IMG/VR virus record: IMGVR_UViG_2684622582_000009
DNA: 18,533 nt
Reading direction: 5' to 3' (one strand)
Origin: a virus
Lineage: Duplodnaviria; Heunggongvirae; Uroviricota; Caudoviricetes
Part shown: positions 1 through 18,533 of the stretch, piece by piece
Layout of the letters: each line of letters begins with the position of its first letter
Position numbering within the stretch: position 1 is the first letter of the stretch
The notes under the pieces: generated by a model
What the model saw: the letters and a program-made list of their open reading frames with translations, nothing else
Database searches by the model: none
What the model was told of the DNA's origin: nothing
Position numbers and translations under genes: made by a program

Positions 1-825
1 CTATTTCTTCTCTGTAATTTTTACACTGTTTTCCAACTGCTTGATGCTGACCTGCGGGGTCGGCAACTCCTCAGGCATGGTTCCGCCAAGTTCCTGAATG
101 GTTTGCCTCACCTTGCGACCCACGTCAAAGTGTGTGGTATTAGCTTGCTGTTTTGAATTCACGCCATCCCGCTTGAGTTTTTCTTCTGTTTGGGTAGCTC
201 GAAAGAGATTAGCCGCCAGTTCTGTTGAACCCATATGATCCAGGATCTTCTGACTCTTTTTCAGCCCCTTCCGCTGATGGATGGCTTTCTGATCTAATCC
301 ACCATACAGTCCCCGGTAACCATGATTCTGAAATATGGCGAAATCGATAGCTGTCGCTACCCCAGCTTGCTGCGCTGCCTCAACTAATTGTTTGTTATGT
401 TCTTTCAACTCATTTCTCAGAAAAAGACGCTTTTCGTCTTCACGAAGTTGCCTGAAAGCTTCATCGTCAGCCAGCTCCTGCCGTCGGGTCTGGATAGCAA
501 AATAAGTTTGCCCTGCCGCAATAACCGGTTTCGCAGGGTCGCCGTTTTGTACTACCAGGTAACAGGCATAGCGGGAGAGATGAACATCTTCAAGTTCTCG
601 TTGAGCCCCTGAACCTAATACAACCATTTTGGTGGTTTCAACGAAATGGTCAGATGCAGCTTGATTGCTGGCTTCGCACGCTTGAGTCGCGCGGGCCAGT
701 ACCTTTTGAAAATTGCGCCAGTCCCGATAATCCAGTAACGGTGCCAATTCTCTCGCTGACCAAAATTCTTGCCCTTCAGTGCCATAATGCCGTATTTCTT
801 CAAAAGGTTGATGATGTTCGTTCAT
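1..825 (-). CDS. dinD: DNA damage-inducible protein DinD (274 aa; complete, stop codon at 1..3)
   Basis: The 278-aa ORF 1..837 contains an internal Met (MNEHHQPFEEIRHYG...) at 825 preceded by a GGAG Shine-Dalgarno, giving 274 aa, the length I recall for E. coli DinD. The N-terminal sequence matches my memory of DinD. A LexA box lies 46 nt upstream. Identity is from recall, not a search. Confidence 0.85.
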   Translation of the reverse strand: MNEHHQPFEEIRHYGTEGQEFWSARELAPLLDYRDWRNFQKVLARATQACEASNQAASDHFVETTKMVVLGSGAQRELEDVHLSRYACYLVVQNGDPAKPVIAAGQTYFAIQTRRQELADDEAFRQLREDEKRLFLRNELKEHNKQLVEAAQQAGVATAIDFAIFQNHGYRGLYGGLDQKAIHQRKGLKKSQKILDHMGSTELAANLFRATQTEEKLKRDGVNSKQQANTTHFDVGRKVRQTIQELGGTMPEELPTPQVSIKQLENSVKITEKK

Positions 826-870
826 TGCCCACTCCATATGATATCGATTGCAAGGAAAGTAAGTTTACAA

Positions 871-886
871 CTGTGTTTATATACAG
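871..886 (-). promoter_or_regulatory. LexA (SOS) box CTGTGTTTATATACAG upstream of dinD
   Basis: Read directly: CTG-N10-CAG with an AT-rich core, flanked as AACTGT...ACAGTT (869..888). Its reverse complement AACTGTATATAAACACAGTT is nearly identical to the dinD SOS box as I recall it. Confidence 0.8.
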
Positions 887-1521
887 TTGTGAGTATCTCA
901 CGTTCTCACTGCGCTGGGCAAAAAAACATCGCAAAATCTGGAGCAGGCACGCAAAACAGAATTGAATGTTGCGGGGAGGAAAAATGCCGCTCTGTTTGAG
1001 TGGGCGGCATTTGTGAAGGCTGAAAAGGAAGAATTGGCGTTACGAGTTGGATCTGTTTGTAGAGTGTTGGCTTCAATGCCGCATTGTGGCTGGTTTCTTT
1101 CTAATGCGGTTTTTGATTATGTACACCCTTATGTACACGGTTTTTTCGGGTGCTTTGGCCAGAAGCCATTGTCTACATCCCTCACGATCGAGGTGTGTAA
1201 CCATGTTCAGGCTTGTTGTCCTGCGCGCGCGTATTGCTCGTGAAATTGCTGTAACCAATAGTGATGTCCGAAAAAACCTCCGTTCTCACATGAAACAGCC
1301 ATGTGCAACTGGTAACTGAATAGACTGGTAGACCGTTCGTTCAGTAAATACCTGATATTTTCGCCAACGAGAAATTGCGTTGGCTGGCAGAGTGCAAATT
1401 TGCACGATGACCTAACCCATTGATTTTTTCGAAAACCTACAATGCAGGAAGCCGGATAACACCATTTTTATAGCTCCGATCCCTTCAAAGTGAGGGGGAA
1501 TTTGCCAAAACAGAGAGAGCA

Positions 1522-1809
1522 TTACTGTCTCTGGCAATCTTTATCGCGATAACGCCTGAAGTACCCTCTCGCTTCCTCATCCATACCAAGAGCCGAATGA
1601 GTCCGCTTAACTGCCTGTCTTAAATCTCCGAATCTGTCTGTAGTTGCTGGTGGGCGTGCCGCCTTACGGATACATTCAGAGCGTCTGTTTGCTGCATGTT
1701 CACGTTCTTTATCGCCATCTGCCAGCATCATGACTTCTGCCCATCGTGCGGCAGCTCTCCGGTATAGCCCTTTTGACTCCAGCTCTTCAGCTTTCCTGTC
1801 CCTTATCAT
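1522..1809 (-). CDS. PerC-family transcriptional regulator-like protein (95 aa)
   Basis: ORF with a GAGAGG Shine-Dalgarno about 5 nt upstream of the ATG at 1809. The N-terminal segment AEELESKGLYRRAAARWAEVM resembles the conserved A-x-x-LE-x-x-G-[LY]-[WY]-RRAA-x-RW signature I recall for PerC/Pch proteins, which are common on E. coli P4-like islands. Confidence 0.55.
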   Translation of the reverse strand: MIRDRKAEELESKGLYRRAAARWAEVMMLADGDKEREHAANRRSECIRKAARPPATTDRFGDLRQAVKRTHSALGMDEEARGYFRRYRDKDCQRQ

Positions 1810-1838: not shown

Positions 1839-1966
1839 AAAAGGTGTTGGTTCAGTTGGTTCAGTTGGTTCAATTTGTAAAGAGCGTTGTTTTTATTGTG
1901 TTTTTTCTAAAATATTGAACCAACATCAACTCATTTTGAACCAACAAAAAGTGTCCGTGAACTAAC
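1839..1966. repeat. Iteron array A: three tandem GTTGGTTCA (1846..1872), then inverted copies TGAACCAAC at 1916..1924 and 1937..1945, and a degenerate TGAACTAAC at 1958..1966
   Basis: Read directly. Positions 1839..1884 are the exact reverse complement of 9395..9440. Interpretation as an alpha-binding ori/crr-like site is by analogy with P4 type I iterons. Confidence 0.7.
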
Positions 1967-2296: not shown

Positions 2297-3382
2297 ATGA
2301 TTCTCAAAAGCCACCTGTATTCAATGCCTTTGATGGGTTTCATCCATAGTTATTTTCTCGTGACTGACATGGAGATTTTGATTTCAAGGTGTGCAAAAAC
2401 TATCGCAGAGTACAATGGAGCTCAAATGACTGTGGCACCAAAAGATCAAAGTTTGAAATCTGTAAGGGTGGGCTTTTACACAAGCTCTGAGAATATTCGC
2501 ACTAGTAACAAGGGGTTAACCGCAGAGGCCTTTAAAAATCTGTATGATCGGTGTTCTAAAGACTTCAAGATGACCCACTATGCAGACTTTGGTGAAAGAG
2601 AACTTAAAATTCATTTTCTAGACATCTCACCCGAGGATGGCTCCTACTTCGGATTCATGTCTCGAAGAAGAAAAAGCGCAACACTGGCATATATTACAGA
2701 TAAAGAGTGGGTGGAAGAGAAAATCCCTCTAGCCGGGGCAAAGACTCTTTCAGAACGTACATACTTTATTTATTATCCTCAGACAGACATTCTAGTATTG
2801 TCTTTAAATCATTTAGGTCCACGCCATAGTGACTTAGCCTTCCTTCTTTTCAACTCCAGTGATCGCGGAGTCCCTGTTTCTTTTGAAGCCATTTGGAAAG
2901 AAGAAAGCATCAAAGAACTACTCGAAACTGGATCCAATCTAAGAAGCTGCGAGATTTCTGTGGCCATCCCAAGAAACTTCAATGCCGCACAGTATCAACT
3001 CGATGGAATGTTCGCGAATCAGATGATTGAGATGATCAGAGGCACCAGTTCAAGCCACCTGACTATTTCGTTACGCGGACATTCTCCATTAAAAAGAAAA
3101 GCAAAGGGATGGCTTGAGGATGACGTTAAAAAAAGCCTTAAGGAGATGCTAGAAAAGTTCCCTGGTGGTGATGGTCGTTTAACTTTTGAGAAAGCAAATG
3201 TTGTTGCTCAGGGCGATAAAAAGAAGAAAAGTCTTGTAGACGAAGTTCTTACGGTAAAGAAGATGGTGCCTATCCAAGCAGATGGGTATCCGACCGATAC
3301 TGACGTTAAAAATGCTATGCTACAAGCAAAGAATGACAACCTTAGGTATCTAACCCAGTACTATTTGGTTAGTCAAACGTAA
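2297..3382 (+). CDS. Hypothetical protein (361 aa as drawn), first gene of an AT-rich two-gene operon; candidate defence/abortive-infection component
   Basis: Long uninterrupted ORF in visibly AT-rich DNA. Possible starts are ATG 2297 (AGGT about 5 nt upstream) or ATG 2426 (GGAG 5 nt upstream), so the true N-terminus is uncertain. The stop lies 12 nt before the next gene's start. I recognise no family motif by eye. Confidence 0.6.
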   Translation: MILKSHLYSMPLMGFIHSYFLVTDMEILISRCAKTIAEYNGAQMTVAPKDQSLKSVRVGFYTSSENIRTSNKGLTAEAFKNLYDRCSKDFKMTHYADFGERELKIHFLDISPEDGSYFGFMSRRRKSATLAYITDKEWVEEKIPLAGAKTLSERTYFIYYPQTDILVLSLNHLGPRHSDLAFLLFNSSDRGVPVSFEAIWKEESIKELLETGSNLRSCEISVAIPRNFNAAQYQLDGMFANQMIEMIRGTSSSHLTISLRGHSPLKRKAKGWLEDDVKKSLKEMLEKFPGGDGRLTFEKANVVAQGDKKKKSLVDEVLTVKKMVPIQADGYPTDTDVKNAMLQAKNDNLRYLTQYYLVSQT

Positions 3383-3394: not shown

Positions 3395-3832
3395 ATGAGT
3401 TCTCGGAAATTGTTTGCTGCCAAGTCATTGTTTGCTCTAGCTATGGCTATTGCTGGTGCCCATTTTTTACACGACCTAGATCACAATGCTGTCATTTCGG
3501 CTGCTGGTGCTCTTTCAACTATTTCTGGAGTTCTCTTTGGTTTTGTTTTGGCATCAGTCACCATGCTAAGTAGCTTTGATAGTTCAAAGGGAATTGTAGG
3601 CGCTCTAAAAAGTAACGGAGTACTAAAAGGCATTATTGAGGGGCTTTTTGATACAGGAACTACGCTGATCACAGCCTGCCTATTAGCAATGATCTCGATG
3701 TTTGCCCCTGTTGTCAGCAATCTGCCTCTGGATTATTATGCCCTGCTACTCGCAGGGGCATATTTGATTATATCAATGATAACTTTTTTCTTTAACTGGA
3801 AATCTTTATCTAAAATAATAAGTTACATATGA
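3395..3832 (+). CDS. Small integral membrane protein (145 aa, about four predicted TM helices); candidate membrane effector
   Basis: AGGAA Shine-Dalgarno 7 nt upstream of the ATG. Four hydrophobic segments of about 20 to 25 residues (LFAAKSLFALAMAIAGAHFL; AVISAAGALSTISGVLFGFVLASVTMLSSF; TTLITACLLAMISMFAPVV; YYALLLAGAYLIISMITFFFNW). Starts 12 nt after the 361-aa ORF. Confidence 0.7.
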   Translation: MSSRKLFAAKSLFALAMAIAGAHFLHDLDHNAVISAAGALSTISGVLFGFVLASVTMLSSFDSSKGIVGALKSNGVLKGIIEGLFDTGTTLITACLLAMISMFAPVVSNLPLDYYALLLAGAYLIISMITFFFNWKSLSKIISYI

Positions 3833-4554: not shown

Positions 4555-4664
4555 CCCCATCAACTGGGAGCGGATTTGAAATCCCGACCCAAGCTATGTA
4601 CCAAATGCCATGTCTTGGATATATGATGATTGCCATTCTAAACAACGCTAAAGGGAGGGTTGGT

Positions 4665-5063
4665 GTGAATCAATTGAAGCGATTGGTTGTCTCCGGTTTA
4701 TTATTTGCTTCTTTTGGAGCGAACGCTGAATGCTGGATTATTGGTGATCTGAAAGGACAAGAAGCCTCAAGTTTAGATGGGTATAACTATAAGTTATCAT
4801 CTATACCAGATACATTTCATTTGGTAATAAGTAAAGAGAAGGCGGATCTTATCTTGGCAAAAGATGGTATAGGTGGAGGTATTGATTATTACCCGCTATC
4901 TCCGAATGCCATGATGGGAAGAAGCTATCGAGATGGTCAACTGACGCTTGTCACATGGGCAATCTCAAATGACGGAAAAGTGATCCATACACGAACAATT
5001 AGTCGATCTGATATAGGCTCATTTACAGGCTCATTTGTCGGCAATGTTAAAGGCAAGTGTTAA
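4665..5063 (+). CDS. Small secreted/periplasmic protein (132 aa from GTG 4665) with a Sec-type signal peptide
   Basis: A strong Shine-Dalgarno AAGGGAGGG (4652..4659) sits 5 nt before the in-frame GTG at 4665, whereas the upstream ATG at 4596 has none. The N-terminus NQLKR-LVVSGLLFASFG-ANA|E has the n/h/c regions and AXA site of a signal peptide. The mature part has a Cys near each end. Confidence 0.55.
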   Translation: MNQLKRLVVSGLLFASFGANAECWIIGDLKGQEASSLDGYNYKLSSIPDTFHLVISKEKADLILAKDGIGGGIDYYPLSPNAMMGRSYRDGQLTLVTWAISNDGKVIHTRTISRSDIGSFTGSFVGNVKGKC

Positions 5064-5124: not shown

Positions 5125-7230
5125 TTATTGAGCTTCCTTTTGCGATGCTTGTGCTGCTGTGGTCAGTGATTGTGTGACCGTACTGATCGCTCTGTCATAT
5201 GCTGTGCTACCTTTTGGCGTATTTGCCAGACGTAACAAGGCATTTCGTATAACAGGGCTTTCGTATGCCTTCGCTGCTCCGCCTACGGAACCAGCAGCAG
5301 GAACAACAAACGCAGCCGTTTTTAGCATCCCCGCTAATACTGCTGCGTTTATGATGCCACCACCAACTAACAATCCATAAAGCTGCTGACCATTTAAGTT
5401 TTGAACGTTCGCTTTTGCCGCGTGTCTTGTATCGTTGAGGTATTTAATAACGCCGTCCAGTTCCTTTCCATGTATGCCTTTAAAGAAAGTTGCTGATTGC
5501 TTCCTGTTCCGGTGTAACGCATTAATAAACTTCTCAACACTGATATTTCCAGACGGATCAGTCGCCTTATCTACAGCATTCTGAACTATGGCTGCTCGTG
5601 CGTTTTGCCTACCATTGTCATCCAGAAGCCTGTAAAGCTGAGAACGTTCTGATGGGCTTTGGCTAAAAACAAGTTTTGTTACATCCTCAGGCGTGGCCTT
5701 GCCGCTGGCTATTGCCTTTTGAACGCGCGTTCTTCCCATCATGTCATTGAATTTAGACCATGAGCGATCAACCCTTGCCATATTAATAGCTTCGTCTGCT
5801 CCAAGATTTTTGGCTACGGCTTTTTTCATATCCGCCGTATATGCCTTGTAGATAATATCGCTGGCTTTCTGGAGCGTATCTTTATCAACAGTGTCAGATG
5901 ACGCCATAAATCGCTTTCGAAGATCGGTTCTGTTTTCCCTCGCCAGACGCAGGTCATTTGGTCCGCTGGTGATATCGTCTTTAAATTGCTGCAAGACTTT
6001 TACCGCGGCTCTATCCTGAGATTTGCCCGGGCGGCTTAACACGGCAATCTGATTGTCGATAGCTTTTACCGTGTTTGAGAGATCGACAGGGGTATCCCCC
6101 ATAGCGTCAATTATGCGGTTATATCGCTTTCCTGCTGCCTCAATGAATTTTTGTTGCCCTTTAGTCGCAGATTCATAAAGCTGTTTATCAGAAATGCCAC
6201 CCAGACCATCGCTAAATGTTCTGACTAAATTTTCTCGTGCTTGTTGTTGATTCAGCCGATTCTTACCGGTTCCAAAAAAAGGAACTCTTTCGCCTAATGT
6301 CTGAGCCTGACTCTGCATAAAGGTTTTATCTTTCAGCATGTCACTGGTCATTAACGGCAGATTTCTTTCCGATGCAAAGTCGACAGCAGCCTTTGCTTCA
6401 GGCGATATATCACCACGAACAGCCCTCGAAACCGCACTCGCTGTATTTTCCAGCCCCTTACCAATACCACCAATGCCAGCAGAAATTACCGTTTGTAACG
6501 GATCAATATCTTCTCCACCAGCGAGGCTGGTGGCTCCCTGTAGTGCTAAATCTGTAGCTGCTGATTTCCCTATGGCCCCCAGCACCGTTCCGGCCCTGCC
6601 CGCTGGTGTAAACGCCAGCGCATTAGCCAGAAACGATGCCACGTCTTGCGGCGATAAACCCGGCTTGTTCAGAGCATAATCACCGGATGGCAGGGAAACG
6701 ATAGTGTTACCCTTCTCATCCTGCCTTAATTTCGCTCCCATGCTCTGAAGAATCTTTTCCTGAGATGCGTCAGAGCCGAAAAGTTGAGACCATCGAGCTT
6801 TTAGAGCATCCATGCTGAGTGAGGTTAACTCTGGGGCAAGGTCGACATTTTGCAGTCTCTCCATCTCTGGAGTCATTCGGCTTTCGCCTGTTATAGCATC
6901 GCGCATCGCAGCCCCAAGACTGGCTCCCTGTTCTGCTGAACGCTCAAGCCCCTCTCTTTGCTGAGTAGCTAACTTTGCATACCCTGACGCAAGAGAATTA
7001 TCAGATGATGTATGTTGAATATTTTGAGTTGCTGATTGGGATCGGTCTATTTCATTCGTTGATGGTAGTGGATAGGCAGCATAAAAAGCCTGCTTAGCCT
7101 GCTCTACACTTTCTCCGGCTTGCGGGGCAACGACTTCATTGAAGTATTGCTCCTGAGCCTGCGCTTTTTGTTCTGGTGCTAACGCCTGATACTGTGGAGA
7201 GGCGATAACATCTTTCCATGCTTTAGCCAT
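5125..7230 (-). CDS. Large hypothetical protein (701 aa), A/Q-rich with a C-terminal glycine-zipper hydrophobic hairpin
   Basis: ORF with a GGGGTGA Shine-Dalgarno. Its ATG overlaps the upstream gene's stop (TAATG at 7228..7232), indicating translational coupling. The C-terminal segment LYGLLVGGGIINAAVLAGMLKTAAFVVPAAGSVGGAAKAY is about 40 hydrophobic, Gly-rich residues. No Walker A or other catalytic motif is recognisable. Confidence 0.75.
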   Translation of the reverse strand: MAKAWKDVIASPQYQALAPEQKAQAQEQYFNEVVAPQAGESVEQAKQAFYAAYPLPSTNEIDRSQSATQNIQHTSSDNSLASGYAKLATQQREGLERSAEQGASLGAAMRDAITGESRMTPEMERLQNVDLAPELTSLSMDALKARWSQLFGSDASQEKILQSMGAKLRQDEKGNTIVSLPSGDYALNKPGLSPQDVASFLANALAFTPAGRAGTVLGAIGKSAATDLALQGATSLAGGEDIDPLQTVISAGIGGIGKGLENTASAVSRAVRGDISPEAKAAVDFASERNLPLMTSDMLKDKTFMQSQAQTLGERVPFFGTGKNRLNQQQARENLVRTFSDGLGGISDKQLYESATKGQQKFIEAAGKRYNRIIDAMGDTPVDLSNTVKAIDNQIAVLSRPGKSQDRAAVKVLQQFKDDITSGPNDLRLARENRTDLRKRFMASSDTVDKDTLQKASDIIYKAYTADMKKAVAKNLGADEAINMARVDRSWSKFNDMMGRTRVQKAIASGKATPEDVTKLVFSQSPSERSQLYRLLDDNGRQNARAAIVQNAVDKATDPSGNISVEKFINALHRNRKQSATFFKGIHGKELDGVIKYLNDTRHAAKANVQNLNGQQLYGLLVGGGIINAAVLAGMLKTAAFVVPAAGSVGGAAKAYESPVIRNALLRLANTPKGSTAYDRAISTVTQSLTTAAQASQKEAQ

Positions 7231-8696
7231 TAATCACCCCATAGTGAAGAAAAGTTACTGCTGGCTGCTGGCTGTGATACCTGCTCAGATTGCGGCAATG
7301 TCTGCGACGAAGAAGCAGTTCCTCTGTCAACTGCTGAAATAACCCGCAAAGCATCATAAGTTCGACCAGAAGCAGCTTTCAGCGAATTGAACTGGTTTTC
7401 CATCTTCCGGCGCTTGGTATCAATGGTTTTTGTGGAGTCGCCAGGCTGAGGGAAATACATTTGATAATATTTTGACATTTCAGCAGGTGCGATAGCTGCC
7501 CCTGTTTCCTGACGGAGTATTGCCATTATTGCGTCATTAGCATTAACAACGTATTGCTGCTCTGCTGGGCTGAGCGTTAAGTTAGCCAGCGTCCCATTAC
7601 CCAAAGCATTATTAATGATCGCCACTCGCTGTGGGCTAAGCTGGTCTTTCAGTGTATCTATTGAATCAAGAGCATCCCTAACCCTGTATGCAAATCCAGC
7701 AGCTTTTTTAGCCCCTTCTGGCGACTTTTCCATGATCTTTTGGGCTGTTGGCAAAGCTATTGGACGAAACCCATCTCCAGATATTGGCTGGTTTAGTTTT
7801 CCCTGCTCTTCACTTCCGTCTGTGTAGTATTTTGTGACAGTGCCATCATCGTTTTCTCTAACACTCATTAATTTTTTGGCGTTTGTATTAATTCCAGCCG
7901 CTGCCGCAAATGCCGCCGCCCCCTCTGGATCCGCCTTTAACATTTGCGCGTACTGATTGTAATTCTGCATTGCGGCTGTTGGTGCATATGCTGACGTTAA
8001 CGCATTTGCTCGGCTAATATCCTGCCCTCTCGCCTGAAGTGCTTCTCCGGCCTGATTGCTGCGGATTGTCTCTGCCAACTTGCCACGCTCAATATCCCGA
8101 CCTTCCATTTGATCTTTGATATCGAAATACTTCTCATGACCGAGAGAAAACAGCGCCAGATTACCTGCGAAATGCTGGAAGCCCTGCGGGTCATTAACCT
8201 GCATTTCAGCAATAGTTTCTGGAGGGATACCTAAACGACGCATCTCCTGCTCATTATCCATCATGAACCTGCCAAATGCGCCCTGACCAAGCGATGAGGC
8301 TACCTGTGCTTTGAGCGCCAGATTGCCATAATCATCCCTTTGAGCATCATCGACATAACTCATCCCTTTACGGACTTCCTCAAACTCTTCTGGGAATGCT
8401 GTAATAAGATTACGCATCTGCTCCCTGTCACCGGACGCATAAGCATCTGCATAACCTTTCTGGAATGCTGCTTTACGCTCCTGCTGTTGCTGCTGCTTAT
8501 AAATATCAGCAACTCCAGCCAGACCACGAAGACCTGTCAGAGCAACGTTATTTGCACCTGAGCGAGCCAGTTCATTGTTTTCGCGGATCAGACCAAGCGT
8601 TGCGTTAATGTCGCTTGCTTTTGGCGCATTCTCATTTTGCGTACCGATGCCAGCCAGAAAACCACCAGAATTAATACCCTGTTGCCACGTAGCCAT
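7230..8696 (-). CDS. Large hypothetical protein (488 aa from ATG 8696; 492 aa if GTG 8708 is used), A/Q-rich, low complexity
   Basis: Long ORF translationally coupled to the 701-aa gene. The track start at 8708 is a GTG overlapping the upstream small gene; the ATG at 8696 (MATWQQG...) lies 4 nt after that gene's stop. Contains a QQQQQ run and many Ala/Gln. Confidence 0.75.
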   Translation of the reverse strand: MATWQQGINSGGFLAGIGTQNENAPKASDINATLGLIRENNELARSGANNVALTGLRGLAGVADIYKQQQQQERKAAFQKGYADAYASGDREQMRNLITAFPEEFEEVRKGMSYVDDAQRDDYGNLALKAQVASSLGQGAFGRFMMDNEQEMRRLGIPPETIAEMQVNDPQGFQHFAGNLALFSLGHEKYFDIKDQMEGRDIERGKLAETIRSNQAGEALQARGQDISRANALTSAYAPTAAMQNYNQYAQMLKADPEGAAAFAAAAGINTNAKKLMSVRENDDGTVTKYYTDGSEEQGKLNQPISGDGFRPIALPTAQKIMEKSPEGAKKAAGFAYRVRDALDSIDTLKDQLSPQRVAIINNALGNGTLANLTLSPAEQQYVVNANDAIMAILRQETGAAIAPAEMSKYYQMYFPQPGDSTKTIDTKRRKMENQFNSLKAASGRTYDALRVISAVDRGTASSSQTLPQSEQVSQPAASSNFSSLWGD

Positions 8697-8700: not shown

Positions 8701-8874
8701 TTACCCACGTCCAGTTAAAGTGTAAGCCAGCGCCTTATCCATTAATCCCCGAGCAATTTCGTGGATCGTTGGCGCAACTCCTACCTCTGATTTTTTACGC
8801 TGCTCCTCCTGAATTTTCTTTATCGCTTCCATTTGCTTCTCACTTATCAATACTGGCTTTACTGAAATAGCCAT
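8701..8874 (-). CDS. Small protein (57 aa), possible ribbon-helix-helix DNA-binding protein; first gene of the LexA-box operon
   Basis: Not in the ORF track because it is under 60 aa. The ATG at 8874 follows a strong Shine-Dalgarno AAGGGGG. Translation: MAISVKPVLISEKQMEAIKKIQEEQRKKSEVGVAPTIHEIARGLMDKALAYTLTGRG. A beta-strand-like VKPVLIS followed by two helical segments is compatible with an RHH fold, judged by eye only. Confidence 0.5.
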   Translation of the reverse strand: MAISVKPVLISEKQMEAIKKIQEEQRKKSEVGVAPTIHEIARGLMDKALAYTLTGRG

Positions 8875-8913: not shown

Positions 8914-9196
8914 GTTTCACAAATCGCAATATTCATCATCGTAATTGCAAAATATGAAACAAATAGCACAAAAAAATGCCACCGCTCAGTAGCTGGTGGC
9001 ATCGTTCTGTGTGTCAGGTTTTGACAGGTTTTTTATGGACTCTAAAAACTATATTTATGGTGTCGCATTACTCTTCACGGCAGGCGCTTTTCAGTTCTGC
9101 CCTTGCTTCTGGCTCCATTGGTAATTTGATTCGCGATCAGCTATGCGGATGGTTTGCTGAACAGGCATAACAACTTCTCAGAGGCTGTTTTTTGAA

Positions 9197-12227: not shown

Positions 12228-12830
12228 TTAGTGCGTCACTGGTGCTTCTGGGATGCCGTTTTCGTTTAGTTCGGCAATAAAGCTGTTGTGAAGATCGGCA
12301 AGCACTTCTCGCCCAAACGAAGTGAGTGTTCCCTGTTCGACATCGAACATGTTGCTGTAAAAAATGATGGCATTCTTTGTTCCGACATCAACACCATATT
12401 TCTCGATCATTGCGCCCTCAATGTTGTTTGCCATAGCGAGGCGCTCTGCTACTGGATACAGCGGCATGGCGACGATGCCATTGGAATAAACAGAAACCAC
12501 GGAATGATTGCCACTGTCATCAATAATGCTGACGGTGCCGTTTTCCTTTCTCATTTCATTGATGAATGCTGTTGCTATCAGCCAGCGCCACATAATCACG
12601 TGATGCTGTGATGTGTAATCGAAATATCCCTGGTTGCCGCCACTGGCAATAGCGAGATGTATAAACATGCCTTCATCTGGTTTATCGTCATAATCCCCGG
12701 CATCCAGACGATTTACGGCATCAATATATGAGACGGTCTCAACGCGTTCTGTCATGCCATCGTTGCTGCGATACATGATGTTTACGCCGTCAGGCGTTGC
12801 TTCTGCATGGAAAGTTAAGAAATTATTCAT
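12228..12830 (-). CDS. Hypothetical protein (200 aa from ATG 12830)
   Basis: The track ORF extends to 12935, but the ATG at 12830 has a GAGG Shine-Dalgarno and overlaps the stop of the upstream 73-aa gene, so I take 12830 as the start. No family recognised. Confidence 0.6.
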   Translation of the reverse strand: MNNFLTFHAEATPDGVNIMYRSNDGMTERVETVSYIDAVNRLDAGDYDDKPDEGMFIHLAIASGGNQGYFDYTSQHHVIMWRWLIATAFINEMRKENGTVSIIDDSGNHSVVSVYSNGIVAMPLYPVAERLAMANNIEGAMIEKYGVDVGTKNAIIFYSNMFDVEQGTLTSFGREVLADLHNSFIAELNENGIPEAPVTH

Positions 12831-13044
12831 GTTTCGCCTCGCCTGAATGATTCTGTAACTCATATTTGCCCAACAATTCGTCCGCTTCCTGAATAGCTTC
12901 TGGTACGCCATTGAGTAGTGACATAACCGCGCCAATCATTAACTTGTCTCTGTTGCTTGGGCTGGCCCCTTCAAGCCAGAACCCTAAAACAGTCTGAACC
13001 TGTTCGATGCGACATTGCGCTTCAATGAGCTGGATGTTGGTCAT
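12823..13044 (-). CDS. Small hypothetical protein (73 aa), coupled operon member
   Basis: Its ATG at 13044 overlaps the upstream gene's TGA in an ATGA arrangement. Part of a run of tightly coupled small genes upstream of the primase. Confidence 0.5.
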   Translation of the reverse strand: MTNIQLIEAQCRIEQVQTVLGFWLEGASPSNRDKLMIGAVMSLLNGVPEAIQEADELLGKYELQNHSGEAKHE

Positions 13045-13304
13045 TTCGCACTCTCCACATCGATTAAACTGATATCTATCAGGGAGGTAACTTTTTGTAG
13101 CCAGCTATTGATTACTGTCGCCTGTTCCCCTCCCACCGAGGGAATAATCTCATTCATCACATGAACCAGACCTGTGCGCGCTCTGGTAAGCCGTTCAGTC
13201 GCGCAATCTGCGGGAGTGAATGTGTCTGGATATGGCTCTTCACGCCCCAGCAATGATTCAATTTCCAGCTCACACGGATGACGATAAATTAAGTTGATAT
13301 TCAT
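13041..13304 (-). CDS. Small hypothetical protein (87 aa), coupled operon member
   Basis: ATGA start/stop overlap with the upstream gene at 13301..13304. Confidence 0.5.
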   Translation of the reverse strand: MNINLIYRHPCELEIESLLGREEPYPDTFTPADCATERLTRARTGLVHVMNEIIPSVGGEQATVINSWLQKVTSLIDISLIDVESAK

Positions 13305-13495
13305 TTTTCACCCCCAAGAATTACCAGCTCGGCACGGGCATCGTTAACCAAAGATGAGCACGCTTTAATCGCATCCACGACATCAGCAGCGTCCATTTCT
13401 TCAGCCGAAAGACTGACAGCAACCAGGACAGCCGCTGCTTGCTCGATTAATTGAAGTGCGGACGTAAGGCGAGGGGTATTAATTGAGTTATTCAT
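13301..13495 (-). CDS. Small hypothetical protein (64 aa from ATG 13495; [10 protein letters not shown]...)
   Basis: The ATG at 13495 overlaps the upstream gene's stop region (CCAATGAATAA). The track's longer 83-aa version would overlap the upstream gene extensively. Confidence 0.5.
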   Translation of the reverse strand: MNNSINTPRLTSALQLIEQAAAVLVAVSLSAEEMDAADVVDAIKACSSLVNDARAELVILGGEK

Positions 13496-13706
13496 TGGTT
13501 GCCCCCGTTTTGCATGGCATTTGTCCACCTTCCAGCAGGAAATGAACGTCACGAACGGCGAGATCCAATATCGCGAGTAACGCCTTCAGTTTTTCATCTC
13601 GTGAGGGAGAGTTGCTTGCCAGAATGTCGTTAATCACTTCTGTCAGTGTGATGATCTGGCTTGTGCGTTCGAGGGGATCCATATGCACATCGTAGGTTTT
13701 AATCAT
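13488..13706 (-). CDS. Small hypothetical protein (72 aa from ATG 13706; [15 protein letters not shown]...), in frame with and nested in the 355-aa ORF
   Basis: A strong Shine-Dalgarno GGAGGTGG lies immediately upstream of the ATG at 13706. The C-terminal part looks protein-like, whereas the middle of the 355-aa ORF does not. Confidence 0.45.
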   Translation of the reverse strand: MIKTYDVHMDPLERTSQIITLTEVINDILASNSPSRDEKLKALLAILDLAVRDVHFLLEGGQMPCKTGATNE

Positions 13707-14555
13707 GTGCCACCTCCATGCGGATACGACCAGCAAAAAAGCAGACGTGATCGCGCACCAGAGAAAGGCGAGCATCGCGTTCAGACTCGGCAGCAATATG
13801 ATGAATTTTGGCGGTAATTGTCGGGCAATCGCGGCGAACTGCGGCGATAATCCAGATAAATTGCGGTTTTTGGGTAGGGGTAGTAGCCAGCATGTGGCAG
13901 CCTCCTTCAGATAGCAGGTTACGCTACCACCGGAAACGCCAATTTCGCTGGTGGTAGCCCAGACAGGGTTGGCGTAACCGGCTCTGAAGGATACCGGCGC
14001 TTCCGAAGAAGCCCCCGCCTGAGCCACCATTGATTGACAAGGGCGCTGGATTATACACCAACGCCCAAAAAATGGGTGAGTCAGACCTACGACATAAAAA
14101 AAGACGCTCGGCGCGTCATATGTCGCCTTCAGAATTTTCAGGACGCCAATCCCGGCACCCGTTTTATGAGGTGCCTTATAACCATAAACCGTGTTGCCGC
14201 ATAACGGCAAGCTCTTTTTTATGGACTCCGAAAACTCACTATTGGAAGCACCAGATGCACAATACATCGCGCTTATTTCGTTAACGTCACGCGCGTGGAC
14301 GAAGGTTTTTGTGGAGTCACTACACGAGCAGAACAGGTCATCTACGACCAGAAATTCTCTGGCGCAGCCGCTGACCTTCTCAACGCTAACATCATCGACC
14401 GTAATTTCTGACATAGTTAAGGCATCCGCTCCTACCACCAGCAAATGATAAACTTTGCTTGTATCTGCTGTATTAATGCCTGACTTTGCCGCCATATTGC
14501 TGTATTTTGGCGACATGCCAGCCAGTGAAAATATCTTCTTCTGGACGGGTATCAT
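13488..14555 (-). CDS. 355-aa ORF of uncertain reality (possibly a genuine N-terminal gene plus read-through, or a region with non-coding function)
   Basis: The start at 14555 has a GGAGG Shine-Dalgarno and ATGA coupling to the upstream 59-aa gene, so translation probably initiates here. The central 150 or so residues are rich in W, C and P and look like a non-coding frame, and several opposite-strand ORFs overlap. Confidence 0.3.
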
Positions 14556-14731
14556 TGGTTAACCTCCGTAAACTCCTTCATGAAACGCGCCAGCGGTTGT
14601 ACGCATGGCGATTGATACCCGTCGCGATAAAACGTCACTCGGTTGTGAGACACGCTTTCGACAGTAACGAGTGCTCCGTGGGCATCTTTGTAGCGTTTTT
14701 GAGGTTGTGGTGTTCCTGTTGGCTTAGACAT
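14552..14731 (-). CDS. Small hypothetical protein (59 aa; MSKPTGTPQPQKRYKDAHG...)
   Basis: The ATG at 14731 overlaps the antirepressor stop (ATGTCTAA). The track's 88-aa version would overlap the antirepressor gene by about 90 nt. Confidence 0.45.
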   Translation of the reverse strand: MSKPTGTPQPQKRYKDAHGALVTVESVSHNRVTFYRDGYQSPCVQPLARFMKEFTEVNQ

Positions 14732-15557
14732 TGACCGCCTCCAGACGCTTGGCGAGCCAGCGTTGCGACAGGCGGGTGAGTTCTCCTTTGCGCTGCTCAT
14801 ATTCCATGCCCATATCAATTAACGTGATATTGGTGCTTTCGAGATATGAGAGGTGCTCAAGTTGTTCTGCGTTCATATGGTCGCGAGGTTCGCCAGAATA
14901 GCCATTTATCCGCGCCCACTGCTTAGCAGTTAGCCCACCAAGAACGATACGAGAAATCATATTGCTCTCGTTTGTGTAGTGGTGTTGCTGCGTCGTTTTC
15001 CCCTGCTCGGCACGGGCCATATTCAGCGCATCGCACATTGGCTTAAAGTTGTTTGCGGCACTGAGACGGGCTTTTAGCTGGCGACGATAGCGGGCGGCGA
15101 TTTCAGGCACGCTACGCTGTAATTCTTCCTCGCACTGGATGAAATAACGACGGATAGCGCGACCCTGATCATTGCGTTCGATCATTGCCAGTTCTTTCGC
15201 CATTCCGACACTTAACAGATAGTCTTTACTGGGTCTGCCAGAGTGCTTAATCTTGCTGTAAGCCGCGCTATTCGGGCTTTTCCCCAAATTTGGGGAAATA
15301 GTTTTATGGACTGAGTAATCGTGCCCAATGGTGAAGTCATATTCAGAGATGCGATCAGTGATCCATGTAGAGAAGTCTTTTCCCACTCCCAACGCTTTGT
15401 GTAACGCTTTTGCGCTAACAATATTGGTTTCACGCCCACCTATATGACCAGAAATAACCGGGACAATTGCGGCAAATTCATTACCGTTAATTGTGCCCAG
15501 AGAGGCGTTCAGATGAGGGGCGGCCTCAGAAATTAATCTGCTTTTTTCGATGTTCAT
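14724..15557 (-). CDS. Phage antirepressor, AntA/Ant-type (277 aa)
   Basis: The N-terminal region (NIVSAKALHKALGVGKDFSTWITDRISEYDFTIGHDY) resembles the AntA-type antirepressor N-domain, and the central segment SVGMAKELAMIERNDQGRAIRRYFIQCEEEL resembles the antirepressor C-terminal region, both from recall. Confidence 0.7.
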   Translation of the reverse strand: MNIEKSRLISEAAPHLNASLGTINGNEFAAIVPVISGHIGGRETNIVSAKALHKALGVGKDFSTWITDRISEYDFTIGHDYSVHKTISPNLGKSPNSAAYSKIKHSGRPSKDYLLSVGMAKELAMIERNDQGRAIRRYFIQCEEELQRSVPEIAARYRRQLKARLSAANNFKPMCDALNMARAEQGKTTQQHHYTNESNMISRIVLGGLTAKQWARINGYSGEPRDHMNAEQLEHLSYLESTNITLIDMGMEYEQRKGELTRLSQRWLAKRLEAVNV

Positions 15558-15569: not shown

Positions 15570-16001
15570 TTAGGCGGCGTTAAACGCGTCCGGGTAGAGT
15601 TTCAGAATGTCGGCAATTTCCTGCTGAGAAAGTCCGTTGTGATCATTTATGTTCGCAAGATGGTTAACATGAGTGATCACTTTCAGAACATCACCACGGC
15701 AGGAGAAACGGTAGCGAAGGTGTGTTCCGATACCATCAGGATTCTTTTCGTCGATACGCTCCAGAGTGATTCCAAGCTGGCGTTCTAACTCTGTTGCATA
15801 GTTACGACCAGAAGACAGACGGCAGTAGCGAAGAATGTCATTTTCTGTCCATCCCTCTATACCAGTACGCAGCATATAGACTCGGGCACGATGCTTTTTC
15901 GGTGTGCGCTTTGGTGCTTGAAGGGATTTTGTAAGGGGCGTAATATCAGATACGCGAATATCTGAATTAGCCGCCTGTAATGGGCGGTTTTTCTTTTCCA
16001 T
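15570..16001 (-). CDS. Hypothetical protein (143 aa), coupled to alpA
   Basis: ATGA overlap with the alpA stop at 15999..16003. Basic N-terminus; no family recognised. Confidence 0.6.
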   Translation of the reverse strand: MEKKNRPLQAANSDIRVSDITPLTKSLQAPKRTPKKHRARVYMLRTGIEGWTENDILRYCRLSSGRNYATELERQLGITLERIDEKNPDGIGTHLRYRFSCRGDVLKVITHVNHLANINDHNGLSQQEIADILKLYPDAFNAA

Positions 16002-16204
16002 CAGGCCACCTTCCCGCGGCGTTCTGCCAGCCAGTTGTGAATCTCAACCGCATCAAACGCAGTTATTTTTTCTCCCAGCTTTACCGGACGTGGTAGTGAA
16101 CCGTTTCTTACTTTACGGTCGATGGTGGATACACTAACGCCCAGCAATTCAGCCAGGCGAAAGCGTCTGATATAGCCTTTTGTAGGGATAGTGTCGATGT
16201 TCAT
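16001..16204 (-). CDS. alpA: AlpA-family (phage Vis-like) transcriptional regulator (67 aa)
   Basis: The segment RLAELLGVSVSTIDRKVRNGSLPRPVKLGEKITAFDAVEIHNWL fits the AlpA helix-turn-helix pattern (L-x-E-x-x-G-x-S-x-STI-x-R ... P-x-P-V-K-L-G ... W) as I recall it. Its position just downstream of the integrase region is typical for P4-like and PICI elements. Confidence 0.8.
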   Translation of the reverse strand: MNIDTIPTKGYIRRFRLAELLGVSVSTIDRKVRNGSLPRPVKLGEKITAFDAVEIHNWLAERRGKVA

Positions 16205-16299: not shown

Positions 16300-16310
16300 T
16301 CTATAGTAAG

Positions 16311-17261
16311 TTAACTATCCACTTTGCCATTTGCCGCAGATCGTAGATGTTTAAGAATTACATCTTCATTAGTTATCATAAGTGGTGGAACTTCGTCTAA
16401 ATGACGAACAAGACAGTCACGCCACTTCTCAGGGCTTATTTCTTTCCTTTCTCCCCTGCATTCATTTGGATACTTACTAAGTATATAAATTGCAGATTTT
16501 AATAGTTTCTCCCTATTGACTGCGTACCGTTCGGCACGTTTATTAACTTTTAGCGTATTTATATCATTGGATAACTTGTTTGCGGATGGTTTGTGCATGG
16601 GTCTGTCATAAATATATTTTCCTCCATTTATAAGAAGATTGTATTCATAGTCAGTTATATACATTTTGTTTCGGCTTATTTCATACCAGCCGTCAATATA
16701 AAAAGCTCCGATTTCATAATTATTCGATTTGCTAAACTCGTCACATCTCGGAGGCATCAGTTCGCATACAGAGATCTCCCAATCATCCCATTCTGATAGC
16801 TCCCGCTCATCGTTATCTATGAACGCAGGCGGAATTGCTAATAGACCGCTCCATCTTTCGATATCTCTTTCATCCTTCCCAACATTGTATCGCTCTATAA
16901 CTGAGAAATGTTCTGATTTGTATGAAAACCTCATAAAATACATATAGTTATCGCTATTTTTATAATCAAGTGATGATAAGCCATATGATTCGAGATTATC
17001 TGCCTTATTGCTCAGATCAAGGAGATAATTCTCATGTGCTGCTTTTGTATCTATATGAAAAATACTATCTGTTTCAACTTTAAGTAATTCTGGCTCGGCA
17101 TCTTCATTTTTTGGGTAATGGTAAAACAATTCAATAGGTGGAATTTTTATACATATTTCTAAAACCCCAATTGCTGCATAGTGTATTAAATCGGATACTT
17201 CACATCCGGCCAGTTTGGCTGCTTTATCCAAAGAATAATATTTATGCGCAGGTAATTTCAT
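16311..17261 (-). CDS. Hypothetical protein (316 aa), AT-rich, with a possible N-terminal HTH; sits between int and alpA
   Basis: Its ATG at 17261 lies 18 nt after the integrase stop, with a GAGAGGAAAG Shine-Dalgarno that spans the int TGA. The N-terminus YSLDKAAKLAGCEVSDLIHYAAIG looks like a helix-turn-helix. The DNA is visibly more AT-rich than its neighbours (not computed). Confidence 0.65.
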   Translation of the reverse strand: MKLPAHKYYSLDKAAKLAGCEVSDLIHYAAIGVLEICIKIPPIELFYHYPKNEDAEPELLKVETDSIFHIDTKAAHENYLLDLSNKADNLESYGLSSLDYKNSDNYMYFMRFSYKSEHFSVIERYNVGKDERDIERWSGLLAIPPAFIDNDERELSEWDDWEISVCELMPPRCDEFSKSNNYEIGAFYIDGWYEISRNKMYITDYEYNLLINGGKYIYDRPMHKPSANKLSNDINTLKVNKRAERYAVNREKLLKSAIYILSKYPNECRGERKEISPEKWRDCLVRHLDEVPPLMITNEDVILKHLRSAANGKVDS

Positions 17262-17279
17262 TATGAATCTTTCCTCTCA

Positions 17280-18533
17280 TCATGCTCTGATTGGCGTTAC
17301 GTTGTAGTCTTTTCCGCTTTCCAGTGCCACCAGCAGATCTGCCCACTGTGCCAGTGCTGCTTTACGCTCATCAAAATACTGATGACGGTTATAAATCCCC
17401 TCTACGCCCTTAATGCGATGATTGAGGCATCGTTCCGCCACGACAGGATCAACACCCAATGCTGCTAAATGAGTACGTGCGGTGCGTCGGAAGTCGTGAA
17501 TCGTGAAATTAGGCACATCCGGCATTTCGGCGCGAACCTTAGCCAGTGCTACGGGTAAAGTGCTTTCCTGAATATGTGGGATCATTCTGTTTTGCATCTT
17601 CCTGGCCGGAAGCACCCATGCGCTATTACATGAAAAGGTGTGTAGCTCTCTCAACCATTCAGCGGCTGGGGAAGGTAGAGGTATATCAATAGGGTCTCCG
17701 TTTTTGCTGCGTTCTTCCGGCAAATGCCATACCGCACCATCTAAATCAAACTCTTCCCATCGTGCGGCGCATAACTCCATCTTACGAACGCATAGTGCCA
17801 GCAATAGTTTAAATGTCAGTTCGTTTTGGCGGCTGAATCCTTTTGCGGTGCGCATAGCCTCGAATAGCCTGATAAGCTCATCGCGAGTTAGCCAACGGTC
17901 GCGGGAAACCTCTTTACCACCAGCATCAGATACTTCAAACGCTGAACAAGGGTTTATCTCCAGAGCGTGGCGTTTTATCCCATAGTCAAAGATACGGCGT
18001 GTCCAGCGTAATACATCTGTTGCTATCGTTGGTGCTCCTCGGTCAACGATACCTTTCAACATGTCGTCAATGTGGCGTGGCTTAACGTCCTCTACCTTCA
18101 TATGCCCAATGCAGGGGTTAATATCCTTATCAATTCTCCGGCGAAGGATATCGGGATGTTTCCATCTCGGAAGTATCTGGCGCTCGAAGTATTCGGAGGC
18201 CAGATCTGAAACACGCATGGCGTTTTTCTCAGCCTCCATTTTTGCCAGTGCTTCAGCTTTTCGTTCCTGTTTCTCTGCTGCTACGTCATAGCCAAGAGCA
18301 ACTCTGGCTGACAGCTCTTTTGCTGTTTCTCTGGCTTTTGATAGTGACAGTTCGGAGTAAGAGCCTATAACCATAGCCCGCTGCTTTCCTGCGAGCTTAT
18401 AGCGGAATCGCCAGAACGGGACTGTGTAGTTTTTGGGGTAGCAAATATAAAGGCCGTTGCCGTCTGCCTTGCCATCAAATCTGTCTCCCGCCTTTATCCA
18501 TGCGCGGATCTGCATATCTGTGAGTTTTGGCAT
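17280..18533 (-). CDS. int: P4-type tyrosine integrase (417 aa; complete, start codon is the last three bases of the window)
   Basis: The C-terminal catalytic region has HDFRRT (His-x-x-Arg) and IYNRHQY (candidate Tyr nucleophile), characteristic of tyrosine recombinases. The N-terminus (GLYICYPKNYTVPFWRFRYKLAGKQRAMVIGSY) resembles the P4-type integrase arm-binding domain, from recall. Confidence 0.9.
   Translation of the reverse strand: MPKLTDMQIRAWIKAGDRFDGKADGNGLYICYPKNYTVPFWRFRYKLAGKQRAMVIGSYSELSLSKARETAKELSARVALGYDVAAEKQERKAEALAKMEAEKNAMRVSDLASEYFERQILPRWKHPDILRRRIDKDINPCIGHMKVEDVKPRHIDDMLKGIVDRGAPTIATDVLRWTRRIFDYGIKRHALEINPCSAFEVSDAGGKEVSRDRWLTRDELIRLFEAMRTAKGFSRQNELTFKLLLALCVRKMELCAARWEEFDLDGAVWHLPEERSKNGDPIDIPLPSPAAEWLRELHTFSCNSAWVLPARKMQNRMIPHIQESTLPVALAKVRAEMPDVPNFTIHDFRRTARTHLAALGVDPVVAERCLNHRIKGVEGIYNRHQYFDERKAALAQWADLLVALESGKDYNVTPIRA

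Follow-up and report, generated by a model that had tools for sequence, protein, structure and literature searches.

The stretch of DNA analysed here, 18,533 nucleotides long and referred to below as the window (IMG/VR record IMGVR_UViG_2684622582_000009), contains a discrete Escherichia coli island; about 17.6 kb long, it is inserted within the final 21 bp of yicC, beside dinD. The island joins a P4-like set of integration, regulation and replication genes to an operon for homologues of two P22-type DNA-ejection proteins, and it carries two copies of a short motif that is also found in the terminase small subunit gene (terS) of phages of the N7/HK620 type. Our comparisons lead us, by a modest preference, to the reading that it is a satellite of P22-like podoviruses (Lederbergvirus, of the HK620/N7 type, and not of P2), which would be packaged through mimicry of the helper pac site and would bring its own conduit for DNA delivery.

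Known satellites remodel the capsid (P4, SaPIs, PLE), redirect packaging (phage-inducible chromosomal islands, PICIs) or build capsids of their own (capsid-forming PICIs, cfPICIs), and to our knowledge none brings its own DNA-ejection machinery. P22-like podoviruses, for their part, are classic generalized transducers. No satellite encoding ejection proteins, a tape measure, a hub or a spike was found in the literature searched, most subscription journals being outside its coverage, so that a prior description is possible. If the cassette works in the way proposed, these would be the first dedicated satellites of P22-like podoviruses, part of the extreme mosaicism of phage genes 16 and 20 would find an explanation, and a long-standing question, what decides whether injected DNA crosses the envelope of immune or excluded cells, would become testable; a satellite that altered the DNA-injection conduit rather than the capsid would represent a new hijacking principle. 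Being common in E. coli and equipped with defence genes as cargo, the island is also of importance for gene flow and phage therapy.

The ejection-protein operon and the terS-gene motif

The ejection operon with its leader occupies positions 5125-8874 of the window, and the features on which the argument depends are the following:

4596..5063, plus strand: secreted 155-aa protein, convergent with the gp16 gene (signal-peptide-like N-terminus)
5125..7230, minus strand: P22 gp16-type DNA-ejection (DNA transfer) protein, 701 aa (phrog_770, 7.7e-162)
7230..8696, minus strand: P22 gp20-type ejection protein, 488 aa, ATG at 8696 (PF16928 Inj_translocase, 1.6e-83; phrog_917, 1.4e-142)
8701..8874, minus strand: 57-aa leader open reading frame (ORF) of the operon, which heads every module type in the family
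8978..8993, minus strand: intrinsic terminator that separates the ejection operon from motif site 2 (terminator scan)
9028..9051, minus strand: terS-motif site 2, TAGTTTTTAGAGTCCATAAAAAAC, intergenic, a second, related copy and putative pac mimic
14214..14237, minus strand: terS-motif site 1, GAGTTTTCGGAGTCCATAAAAAAG, upstream of isrK (N7 terS match)

Both ejection proteins match their phrog families over the whole length, and their genes, the two largest accessory genes of the island, stand in phage order with the gp20 stop codon overlapping the gp16 start. The original prediction, made from the letters of the window alone, had seen no candidates for helper exploitation; the gp20 and gp16 homologues at 5125-8696 and the two motif copies are such candidates. 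With gp16 of coliphage N7 the island gp16 shares 67% identity, and with its counterparts in Sf6, ST64T and L 31-33%. Over its first ~55 codons the island gp20 gene is near-identical to N7 gene 20, a shared 5' end that shows recombination with P22-like phage DNA. When the island was compared with 50,697 phage genomes, nucleotide similarity, at 87-95% identity, was confined to parts of genes 20 and 16 of P22-like phages, among them HK620, CUS-3, Sf6-like phages, N7 and P22 relatives. Searches with the leader ORF returned no homologue in the same phage genomes and, with its profile, none in the PDB; its beta-alpha-alpha pattern is possibly that of a ribbon-helix-helix protein. Sequence searches of the PDB with gp16 and gp20 gave nothing significant, and a scan of GTDB genomes with gp16 recovered one close relative only, in a collection that holds one genome per species and is therefore uninformative on spread.

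In a sister island at the same chromosomal site (L003), the cassette is more complete and comprises gp14 (DUF2824), gp7 (PF25688), gp20 and gp16 in full phage order, whereas gp14 and gp7 are absent from the window. The same four-gene set also occurs in a much more distant satellite, whose primase is truly of the P4-alpha type. Among 5426 complete E. coli genomes, the two-gene junction is present in 217 and the four-gene form in 253, so that cassette carriers together make up about 470 genomes, or roughly 9%. The cassette persists in islands that have another integrase and lie at thrW (tRNA-Thr), where the two-gene form is also found, and in islands with another replicase. Its likeness to P22, Sf6 and HK620 extends to the gp20-gp16 order, the start/stop overlap and the mosaic diversity of alleles, the difference from these phages being that the island genes lie outside any phage, behind a satellite leader and, in the window, without gp7 and gp14.

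The ejection genes are intact in all copies examined, as are all the ORFs of the window. Between island alleles the ratio of nonsynonymous to synonymous substitution rates (dN/dS) is ~0.17 for gp16 (dS ~0.18) and 0.09-0.3 for gp20, with an overall range of 0.05-0.3; judged from these ratios, the ejection genes are under purifying selection. In one island gp16 is present as an allele of just 25% identity, a replacement of the whole allele of the same kind as that described for P22-like phages (PMC10883804). Taken together, the substitution ratios, the intactness and spread of the cassette and its exclusive matches to phage DNA argue for a maintained function and for ongoing exchange with P22-like phages. 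The island does not have the make-up of a P22-like prophage or of a remnant of one: the ejection genes are not set among virion, lysis and lambdoid early genes (compare the intact prophage of strain 755, described below), their neighbours being satellite backbone and cargo.

The convergent 155-aa gene is kept beside the ejection cassette in sister islands. Its product is 29-34% identical to ORFs of Emek (right after gene 16), Sf6 (gp38) and 434 (beside cI), and its relatives in P22-like and lambdoid prophages occupy moron positions; it may be an exclusion or lysogenic-conversion factor.

The second line of evidence is the terS motif, whose core GAGTCCATAAAAAA occurs twice in the window, both times on the minus strand, against 0.01 occurrences expected. 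A sensitive comparison with N7 and HK620 found window positions 14214-14238 identical to N7 terS at 25 of 25 positions (E 1.3e-5), while site 2 lies in non-coding DNA between the origin iterons and the ejection operon. Both copies are kept in every ejection-cassette island examined, and site 1 in all sister islands. Scanning IMG/VR for the motif retrieved more than 120 loci, of which ~95 lie inside N7-type terS genes and ~25 in satellite backbones; some of the motif-bearing TerS proteins are only 37-42% identical to that of N7. To avoid circularity, a second scan used a degenerate pattern defined at the protein level, with all synonymous codons allowed, and codon usage was then compared among 42 TerS representatives below 80% identity. 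The motif codons TTT, GAG, TCC, ATA and AAA are 93-100% invariant in this sample, even though ATA is a rare isoleucine codon, whereas other conserved TerS residues are encoded by mixed codons (fraction of the top codon, 0.25-0.76). Such fixation of synonymous codons indicates that the motif is constrained as DNA or RNA and not as protein.

N7 and HK620 are 99% identical in TerL, portal and coat and differ only in the N-terminal DNA-binding domain of TerS, and the motif sits in the terS segment that encodes this domain. As the pac site of P22 is a 22-bp sequence inside terS (PMC9611059), a pac site is the natural reading of the motif, and GAGTCCATAAAAAA is accordingly treated here as a putative pac site of N7/HK620-type terS. 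The fixed element would thus provide a concrete candidate pac in a widespread terS family whose phages have no known pac. No description of the TTTnnnGAGTCCATAAAAAA terS element was found in a literature search. A broad TerS family (loci L022-L214; for example L004 124-147 and L381 17984) keeps TTTnnnGAGTCCATAAAAAA invariant at synonymous positions while the rest of the gene drifts. The motif was not found in P4. A role as target of the C4 or isrK RNA was also considered and set aside, since no complementarity was visible by eye and the C4 loop pairs with isrK instead.

It is site 2 that ties the motif to the cassette. Of the 15 ejection-cassette loci, 12 have this copy, placed ~169 nt upstream of the leader ORF, and of the 64 loci with another module none has it (Fisher p = 9e-12, a value for which the E. 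coli copies are not independent). Among its carriers are two lineages in which gp20 shares just 26-29% identity with that of the window.

A proposed satellite family with an exchangeable virion-gene slot

Eighty IMG/VR loci anchored on a 143-aa protein of the island share a common backbone, and none of them contains sid, delta, psu or epsilon. When loci were instead anchored on the leader ORF, the slot downstream of the primase was found, by PHROG and Pfam matches, to hold alternative modules: the P22 ejection cassette, a tape measure/hub/spike set, sets of three large proteins, and a few modules of unassigned function. In the tape-measure module, a transglycosylase-domain tape measure (phrog_2276, 2.8e-219) is followed by a baseplate hub (phrog_196) and then by a central spike bearing the GpV apex motif; the proteins of the three-large-protein modules fall into families of internal virion, endolysin-domain and virion structural proteins (phrog_1044, 992, 342, 684). 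All the recognisable modules encode the virion parts by which the envelope is penetrated and the DNA conducted. As the leader has no homologue in deposited phage genomes, the slot is a property of the satellite, filled with genes captured from phages.

Many of the non-P22 modules are followed by a gene for a ~180-204-aa protein with a TerS-like or MerR-like helix-turn-helix (phrog_57, 1.5e-9; for example L317 10019-10633, and L348), which is absent from all ejection-cassette islands, the window included. The presence of a TerS-like gene in some members and of a motif-linked cassette in others suggests two alternative packaging strategies within one family. In Salmonella enterica (L219, GCA_036713215.1) the backbone is again found at the 3' end of yicC, the primase being followed there by a ProQ-like gene, PerC and an unannotated ~989-aa ORF in place of the ejection cassette. 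Klebsiella relatives, too, have other genes behind the primase.

These observations allow a broader proposal, which we put forward tentatively as a possibility: that the island belongs to a large, undescribed family in Enterobacterales, in which a leader-headed slot captures the delivery genes of helpers and the conduit, not the capsid, is re-equipped to pass exclusion of the SieA type. The backbone of such a family would consist of int, AlpA, the 143-aa protein, AntA, the C4 and isrK RNAs, the primase and the iterons, and the slot contents would be combined either with pac mimicry or with a TerS-like gene of the satellite's own. P22-type ejection sets would then serve podovirus helpers, tape measure/hub/spike sets tailed helpers, and large internal virion proteins others.

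For the island itself, the following course of events can be envisaged. Induction of the helper, or infection by it, would derepress the island, possibly with the involvement of AlpA and AntA; the latter might also help to derepress the helper, as epsilon of P4 does for P2. The island would excise and replicate from its iterons, and the helper TerS would recognise the pac-like motif, leading to headful packaging of island concatemers into helper capsids of normal size, at ~2.3 island units per head; with packaging of this kind no capsid-size gene would be needed. Island gp20 and gp16 (joined by gp14 and gp7 in the fuller relatives), the variable members of the conduit, on its side towards the periplasm and the inner membrane, would be built into procapsids and would form the DNA channel of the transducing particle. 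The purpose would be entry into cells, helper lysogens among them, that exclude the helper's own ejection proteins.

The last step draws on work with P22-like phages, in which SieA blocks DNA injection at the inner membrane, the changes that allow escape from SieA lie in the C-terminal portions of gp16 and gp20, and foreign ejection proteins can substitute in P22 virions, gp7 being the conserved, tail-facing component (PMC10883804). That escape lies in gp16 and gp20, and that ejection proteins are substitutable, is what leads us to propose a conduit changed for the entry of excluded cells. The island would in this respect resemble cfPICIs and PICMIs, satellites that likewise depart from capsid-size redirection. 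PICMIs travel as multimers in full-size helper capsids, as we envisage for the island, which differs from them in having no terS of its own; cfPICIs supply their own capsids and packaging machinery, whereas the island supplies internal virion (ejection) proteins.

As regards candidate helpers, a full-length N7-type terS is present in 395 of the 5426 complete E. coli genomes. One strain, E. coli 755 (NZ_CP183129.1; loci L381 and L382), carries an island with the four-gene cassette at yicC, its dinD-side attachment core (attR) truncated as in the window, together with an apparently intact P22-like prophage (L381) at argW whose terS contains the exact motif. The ejection proteins of this prophage and those of the island are only 24-55% identical. 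A second island-bearing genome, 702/18, is also in the terS sample. Further, a metagenomic P22-like contig (L079) combines an N7-type terS with a gp16 93% identical to that of the island, and in GN06667, likewise, an N7-type terS goes together with ejection genes that share ~93% identity with those of the island.

Several points weigh against the satellite reading. Excision, replication, packaging and incorporation into virions are all inferred from sequence, and island ejection proteins would also enter helper virions, so that their benefit would not be private to the satellite. The co-occurrence of island and helper prophage is anecdotal, with 2 overlaps against 0.4 expected by our own estimate. 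The window copy has neither gp14 nor gp7 and retains only 9 of the 21 bp of the attR core; it may thus be immobile. The ejection cassette is missing from many Klebsiella and Salmonella relatives, which makes it a trait of a sub-family. Site 1 is exact in ~38 of the 80 backbone-family islands, with or without an ejection cassette, and occurs with one mismatch in a Salmonella relative that has no cassette; being spread regardless of the cassette, it argues little on its own, and it may serve a backbone function, for instance as part of the isrK/C4 promoter region. Finally, as A AAA AAG, a slippery heptamer of the classical kind, forms part of the terS element, the synonymous constraint might come from frameshifting rather than from pac function. 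A conserved programmed -1 frameshift in terS was examined: the -1 frame stops after 1-43 codons (median ~5), with no conserved product, and we retain the idea only as a minor rival.

The ejection homologues might, on the other hand, act against phages, as dominant-negative subunits that spoil the virions of an infecting or induced P22-like phage (helper interference or abortive assembly) or, together with the 155-aa protein, in superinfection exclusion, whether or not the island is mobilised. PICI-encoded systems that block tail assembly of P22 and HK620 have been documented (PMC11364771), and the island would share with these tail-assembly-interference (Tai) systems functions aimed at the tail and DNA-exit apparatus of P22/HK620. 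The cassette adjoins a cargo hotspot for genes of the defence type, occupied by a Rex-like pair in the window and by Abi and ImmA/IrrE in relatives; the ejection proteins of the island differ strongly from those of the co-resident prophage in strain 755, as a poison subunit might; and the two-gene variant, having neither gp7 nor gp14, could not build a conduit alone. Tai proteins, by contrast, are not homologues of virion proteins, whereas the island carries bona fide structural homologues, which are full length and keep at 91-95% nucleotide identity the segments most conserved among functional phage ejection proteins. Their allele turnover mirrors that of phages, fuller relatives carry four genes in phage order, and the analogous slots of other relatives hold complete tape measure-hub-spike sets. 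We therefore consider an anti-phage role unlikely as the main explanation, interference and self-transfer not being mutually exclusive in known satellites.

The insertion site and the P4-like backbone

The window begins at the dinD stop codon and finishes at the start codon of a tyrosine integrase gene. Its ends are composed as follows:

1..837, minus strand: dinD, chromosomal flank outside the island (Bro-N domain; RefSeq relatives annotate dinD)
838..1046, no strand assigned: native dinD-yicC intergenic DNA including the original yicC terminator (matches the empty site)
1047..1055, no strand assigned: attR core remnant TTGGATCTG, the shortened dinD-side copy (junction comparison)
1117..1140, plus strand: ATTATGTACACCCTTATGTACACG repeat, with a second copy beside int at the other end (repeat search; sequence inspection)
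17280..18533, minus strand: tyrosine integrase with arm-binding domain (Pfam Arm-DNA-bind_3, Phage_int_M, Phage_integrase); attL and yicC lie 189 bp past the window end

The unoccupied site of E. coli UTI89 is 100% identical to window positions 1-1048 and continues directly into the yicC stop codon, and in occupied E. coli genomes with a near-identical element yicC is found 189 bp past the int start, just beyond the end of the window. It was therefore concluded that the element is a discrete island and not part of a larger prophage. The suppositions that yicC, missing from 840..1520, had been parted from dinD by the insertion, and that the junction on the int side lay outside the window, were both borne out, and the direct repeat for which a search had been suggested exists, although it is damaged here. 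Comparison of both junctions of four islands (window, L001, L003 and L005) with an empty site (L002) defined the attachment (att) core as a 21-bp direct repeat, TTATTCrATrTTCTGrATCTG, which covers the last 6 codons and the stop of yicC; the island thus substitutes the end of the gene and supplies a new terminator. The ATTATGTACACCCTTATGTACACG repeats are probably arm-type sites of the integrase. These 24-nt TGTACAC repeats had been tried as the att core and were rejected, the empty-site comparison placing the core at the 21 bp of the yicC stop. No tRNA is present in the window.

The core is complete at both ends of the sister island L003 (TTATTCAATGTTCTGrATCTG at L003 9184-9204), and it has lost 12 bp at attR, falling from 21 to 9 bp, in the window, L001, L005 and strain 755. 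Across ~144 occupied yicC sites, about half have the truncated attR and half the full core. Near attR, a 29-nt sequence CGCGCGCGTATTGCTCGTGAAATTGCTGT (~1225-1253) has two further copies, at 69-79% identity, in the cargo region of a sister island (L001 positions 7225-7253, 9893-9921 and 10179-10207), and may mark boundaries of cargo exchange.

The truncation bears on a further explanation, namely that the window copy is a decaying, vertically inherited island, its gp20 and gp16 genes a captured prophage fragment with no role and the motif regulatory or left over. The lost attR bases, shared with about half of the occupied sites, and the lack of gp14 and gp7 relative to L003 are in keeping with such decay, and the wide occurrence of motif site 1 in the backbone, irrespective of module, is compatible with it. 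We nevertheless hold it to be quite improbable, as the ORFs are all intact with dN/dS well below 1, the two-gene form is found in 217 genomes and extends to a second site and integrase, the motif is exact at two sites (0.01 expected) with site 2 tracking the cassette, and a leader ORF with a swappable virion-gene slot is a design found throughout the family. The original prediction had offered a degenerate, non-mobilisable island as one option; this may hold for the window copy, with its shortened attR and two missing genes, and is unlikely for the family as a whole.

The remaining backbone consists of:

1522..1809, minus strand: PerC-family regulator at the island end (PF06069, 2.6e-33)
1846..1945, no strand assigned: iteron block 2, P4 crr-like, with GTTGGTTCA in 3 direct and 2 inverted copies
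9323..9433, no strand assigned: iteron block 1, directly downstream of the primase, ori/crr-like
9459..12215, minus strand: primase-helicase, 918 aa, with Zn-ribbon, TOPRIM (Toprim_3) and DUF927 (Pfam; phrog_1139, 9.2e-178)
12228..13552, minus strand: four conserved small backbone ORFs of 200 aa (phrog_1515), then 73, 87 and ~64 aa, kept in sister islands
13699..13893, minus strand: Icd-like small ORF directly downstream of the C4 RNA (RefSeq calls the strain 755 homologue Icd-like; coordinates mapped)
13947..14034, minus strand: antisense immunity RNA of the C4 / P4 CI type (79.9 bits with Rfam RF01695, whose gathering score is 45)
14097..14174, minus strand: isrK-type RNA (Rfam RF01394, 67.8 bits; gathering score 50)
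14552..15557, minus strand: DUF4222 small ORF and AntA/AntB-family antirepressor, the latter at 14724-15557 (PF08346, 6.2e-22; phrog_5817; RefSeq annotation)
15570..16001, minus strand: 143-aa family-marker protein (611 homologue clusters across Enterobacterales, all unnamed)
16001..16204, minus strand: AlpA/Vis-type regulator-excisionase (PF05930, 2.2e-8; 35% identity to P4 ORF88, Vis)

Read from int on the minus strand, the order is a 316-aa gene, AlpA, the 143-aa protein, AntA/AntB, DUF4222 and an 'Ash' ORF, followed by several small ORFs, the 200-aa phrog_1515 protein and the primase-helicase. The replication and regulation genes that had been predicted are all present (int, AlpA, AntA and primase by Pfam; the integrase is 25% identical to P4 Int over 411 aa). 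The N-terminal domain of the primase is 32% identical to P4 alpha, and its C-terminal part is of the DUF927 type and not of the D5_N/Pox_D5 type of alpha. An AF2 model of the 143-aa protein, of mediocre confidence (pLDDT 65.6), has an H-H-H-beta-beta topology with weak matches to MarR-like folds, and the protein may be a winged-helix DNA binder. Its Pfam match to 'Head_binding' (E 0.094) was set aside as noise.

The immunity region is RNA based. The C4 RNA region is 71% identical in nucleotides to the cI region of P4, and reading off the sequences shows isrK UUCUGAAGG to be complementary to the C4 loop CCUUCAGAG, which parallels seqA/seqB of P4. Both RNA genes overlap a 355-aa 'Ash family' ORF (13488-14555, minus strand), whose Pfam Ash match (aa 124-232, 5e-34) spans exactly the C4 and isrK genes, at the same place where the obsolete 'cI protein' ORF of P4 aligns. 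The 'Ash' annotations in such islands may consequently be translations of RNA genes. In RefSeq, the strain 755 'Ash' copy is a pseudogene and an Icd-like ORF is called just downstream, an order like that of P1 immI.

The nonamer GTTGGTTCA has 11 exact copies in the window (0.18 expected), distributed over the two iteron blocks, which form an inverted 88-bp repeat of ~85% identity bracketing the accessory region. Block 1 stands to the primase as crr stands to alpha in P4, and the pair mirrors the ori/crr arrangement of P4. The RNAs, the iteron blocks, the ejection-protein homologues and the terS-gene motif all go beyond what had been noticed from the letters of the window.

The likeness to P4 accordingly comprises the arm-binding integrase, an AlpA/Vis regulator, the CI/C4 RNA, an alpha primase domain, bipartite iterons and a hotspot of defence cargo. 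The island differs in having no sid, delta, psu, epsilon or P2-type cos, in the DUF927 helicase that replaces the D5 type of alpha, and in carrying P22-type ejection proteins and a headful-type terS motif; the last two imply a different helper family and a different logic of hijacking. Searches of the window with P4 Sid, Delta, Psu and Epsilon by tblastn returned only noise (E >= 0.02; E >= 0.5 for Sid, Delta and Psu), in agreement with the predicted absence of psu, delta and sid, which extends to the 80 backbone relatives. In place of an Epsilon homologue the island has the AntA antirepressor. Window searches for the cos sites of lambda and P2 were negative or at chance level, with no P2-type cos at up to 3 mismatches, and Pfam and PHROG revealed no terS-like ORF and no rpp/ppi-like or capsid-morphogenesis gene among the window ORFs; here too the original prediction, which had seen no terS or packaging genes, proved right. 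No PICI packaging homologue thus emerged, and the flanks are those of a discrete island.

An ordinary Gram-negative PICI of the EcCICFT073 type, mobilised by lambdoid cos phages and with packaging functions too diverged for recognition, remains to be weighed. The P4-like core of SatelliteFinder comprises int, Psu, Delta, Sid, AlpA, Ash/epsilon and alpha, and its authors kept apart a group of elements without a class, 'Type C PICI', in which undescribed families may be present (PMC10085698). By these published criteria the island has no counterpart of three of the seven core components and would fall among the 'Type C PICI' elements. Its layout (int-alpA-primase-ori-accessory), a size in the range of ~15-18 kb and the lack of a Stl-type repressor are all PICI-like. 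It departs from Gram-negative PICIs in having no cos, no Rpp/TerS and no capsid-morphogenesis genes, in its RNA-based immunity of the P4/P1 type, and in its ejection-protein genes, unreported for PICIs in the literature searched. Where PICIs have a helper cos or pac site, the island has a pac-like motif of putative function. As no candidate for a cos-like site, capsid morphogenesis, terS or Rpp was found among the conserved ORFs, and as the only phage-derived DNA comes from headful-packaging P22-like phages, we regard this explanation as very improbable.

Cargo and variable slots

Between the PerC end and the ejection cassette, and again between int and alpA, the island carries genes that differ among relatives:

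2426..3382, plus strand: DUF6731 cargo protein, the ORF being listed from 2297 (homologues carry PF20505)
3395..3832, plus strand: 145-aa cargo protein with four hydrophobic segments (hydropathy scan; phrog_8552)
16311..17261, minus strand: 316-aa gene of GC content 0.36, the second variable slot (no family or PDB match)

The AF2 model of the DUF6731 protein (pLDDT 80.1) has lambda RexA (8twq) as its top Foldseek match in the PDB (E 5.5e-7, prob 1.0, although with a TM-score of only 0.36), followed by RdgC. Lambda RexB is a protein of 144 aa with four transmembrane segments, and the cargo pair at 2426-3832 looks, on the basis of this model, like a candidate exclusion system of the RexA/RexB type: in both, a RexA-fold protein precedes a membrane protein of ~145 aa with four segments. 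The island pair differs from lambda Rex in having no detectable sequence similarity to it and in being cargo and not core. The cargo at 2297-3832, earlier suspected of hiding the hijacking module, hence points to defence.

Scans of cargo and unassigned genes with PADLOC (2.0) and NCBIfam gave nothing useful, with no PADLOC match for the Rex-like pair, and PDB sequence searches with a 361-aa cargo protein and the 316-aa protein gave nothing significant. The cargo region varies between near-identical islands, others of which hold ImmA/IrrE or Abi genes, as is seen in hotspots. The slot between int and alpA is similarly variable among the relatives examined, with a gene of 216 aa in L003, 323 aa in Klebsiella and 283 aa in Salmonella (L216 and L219 examined).

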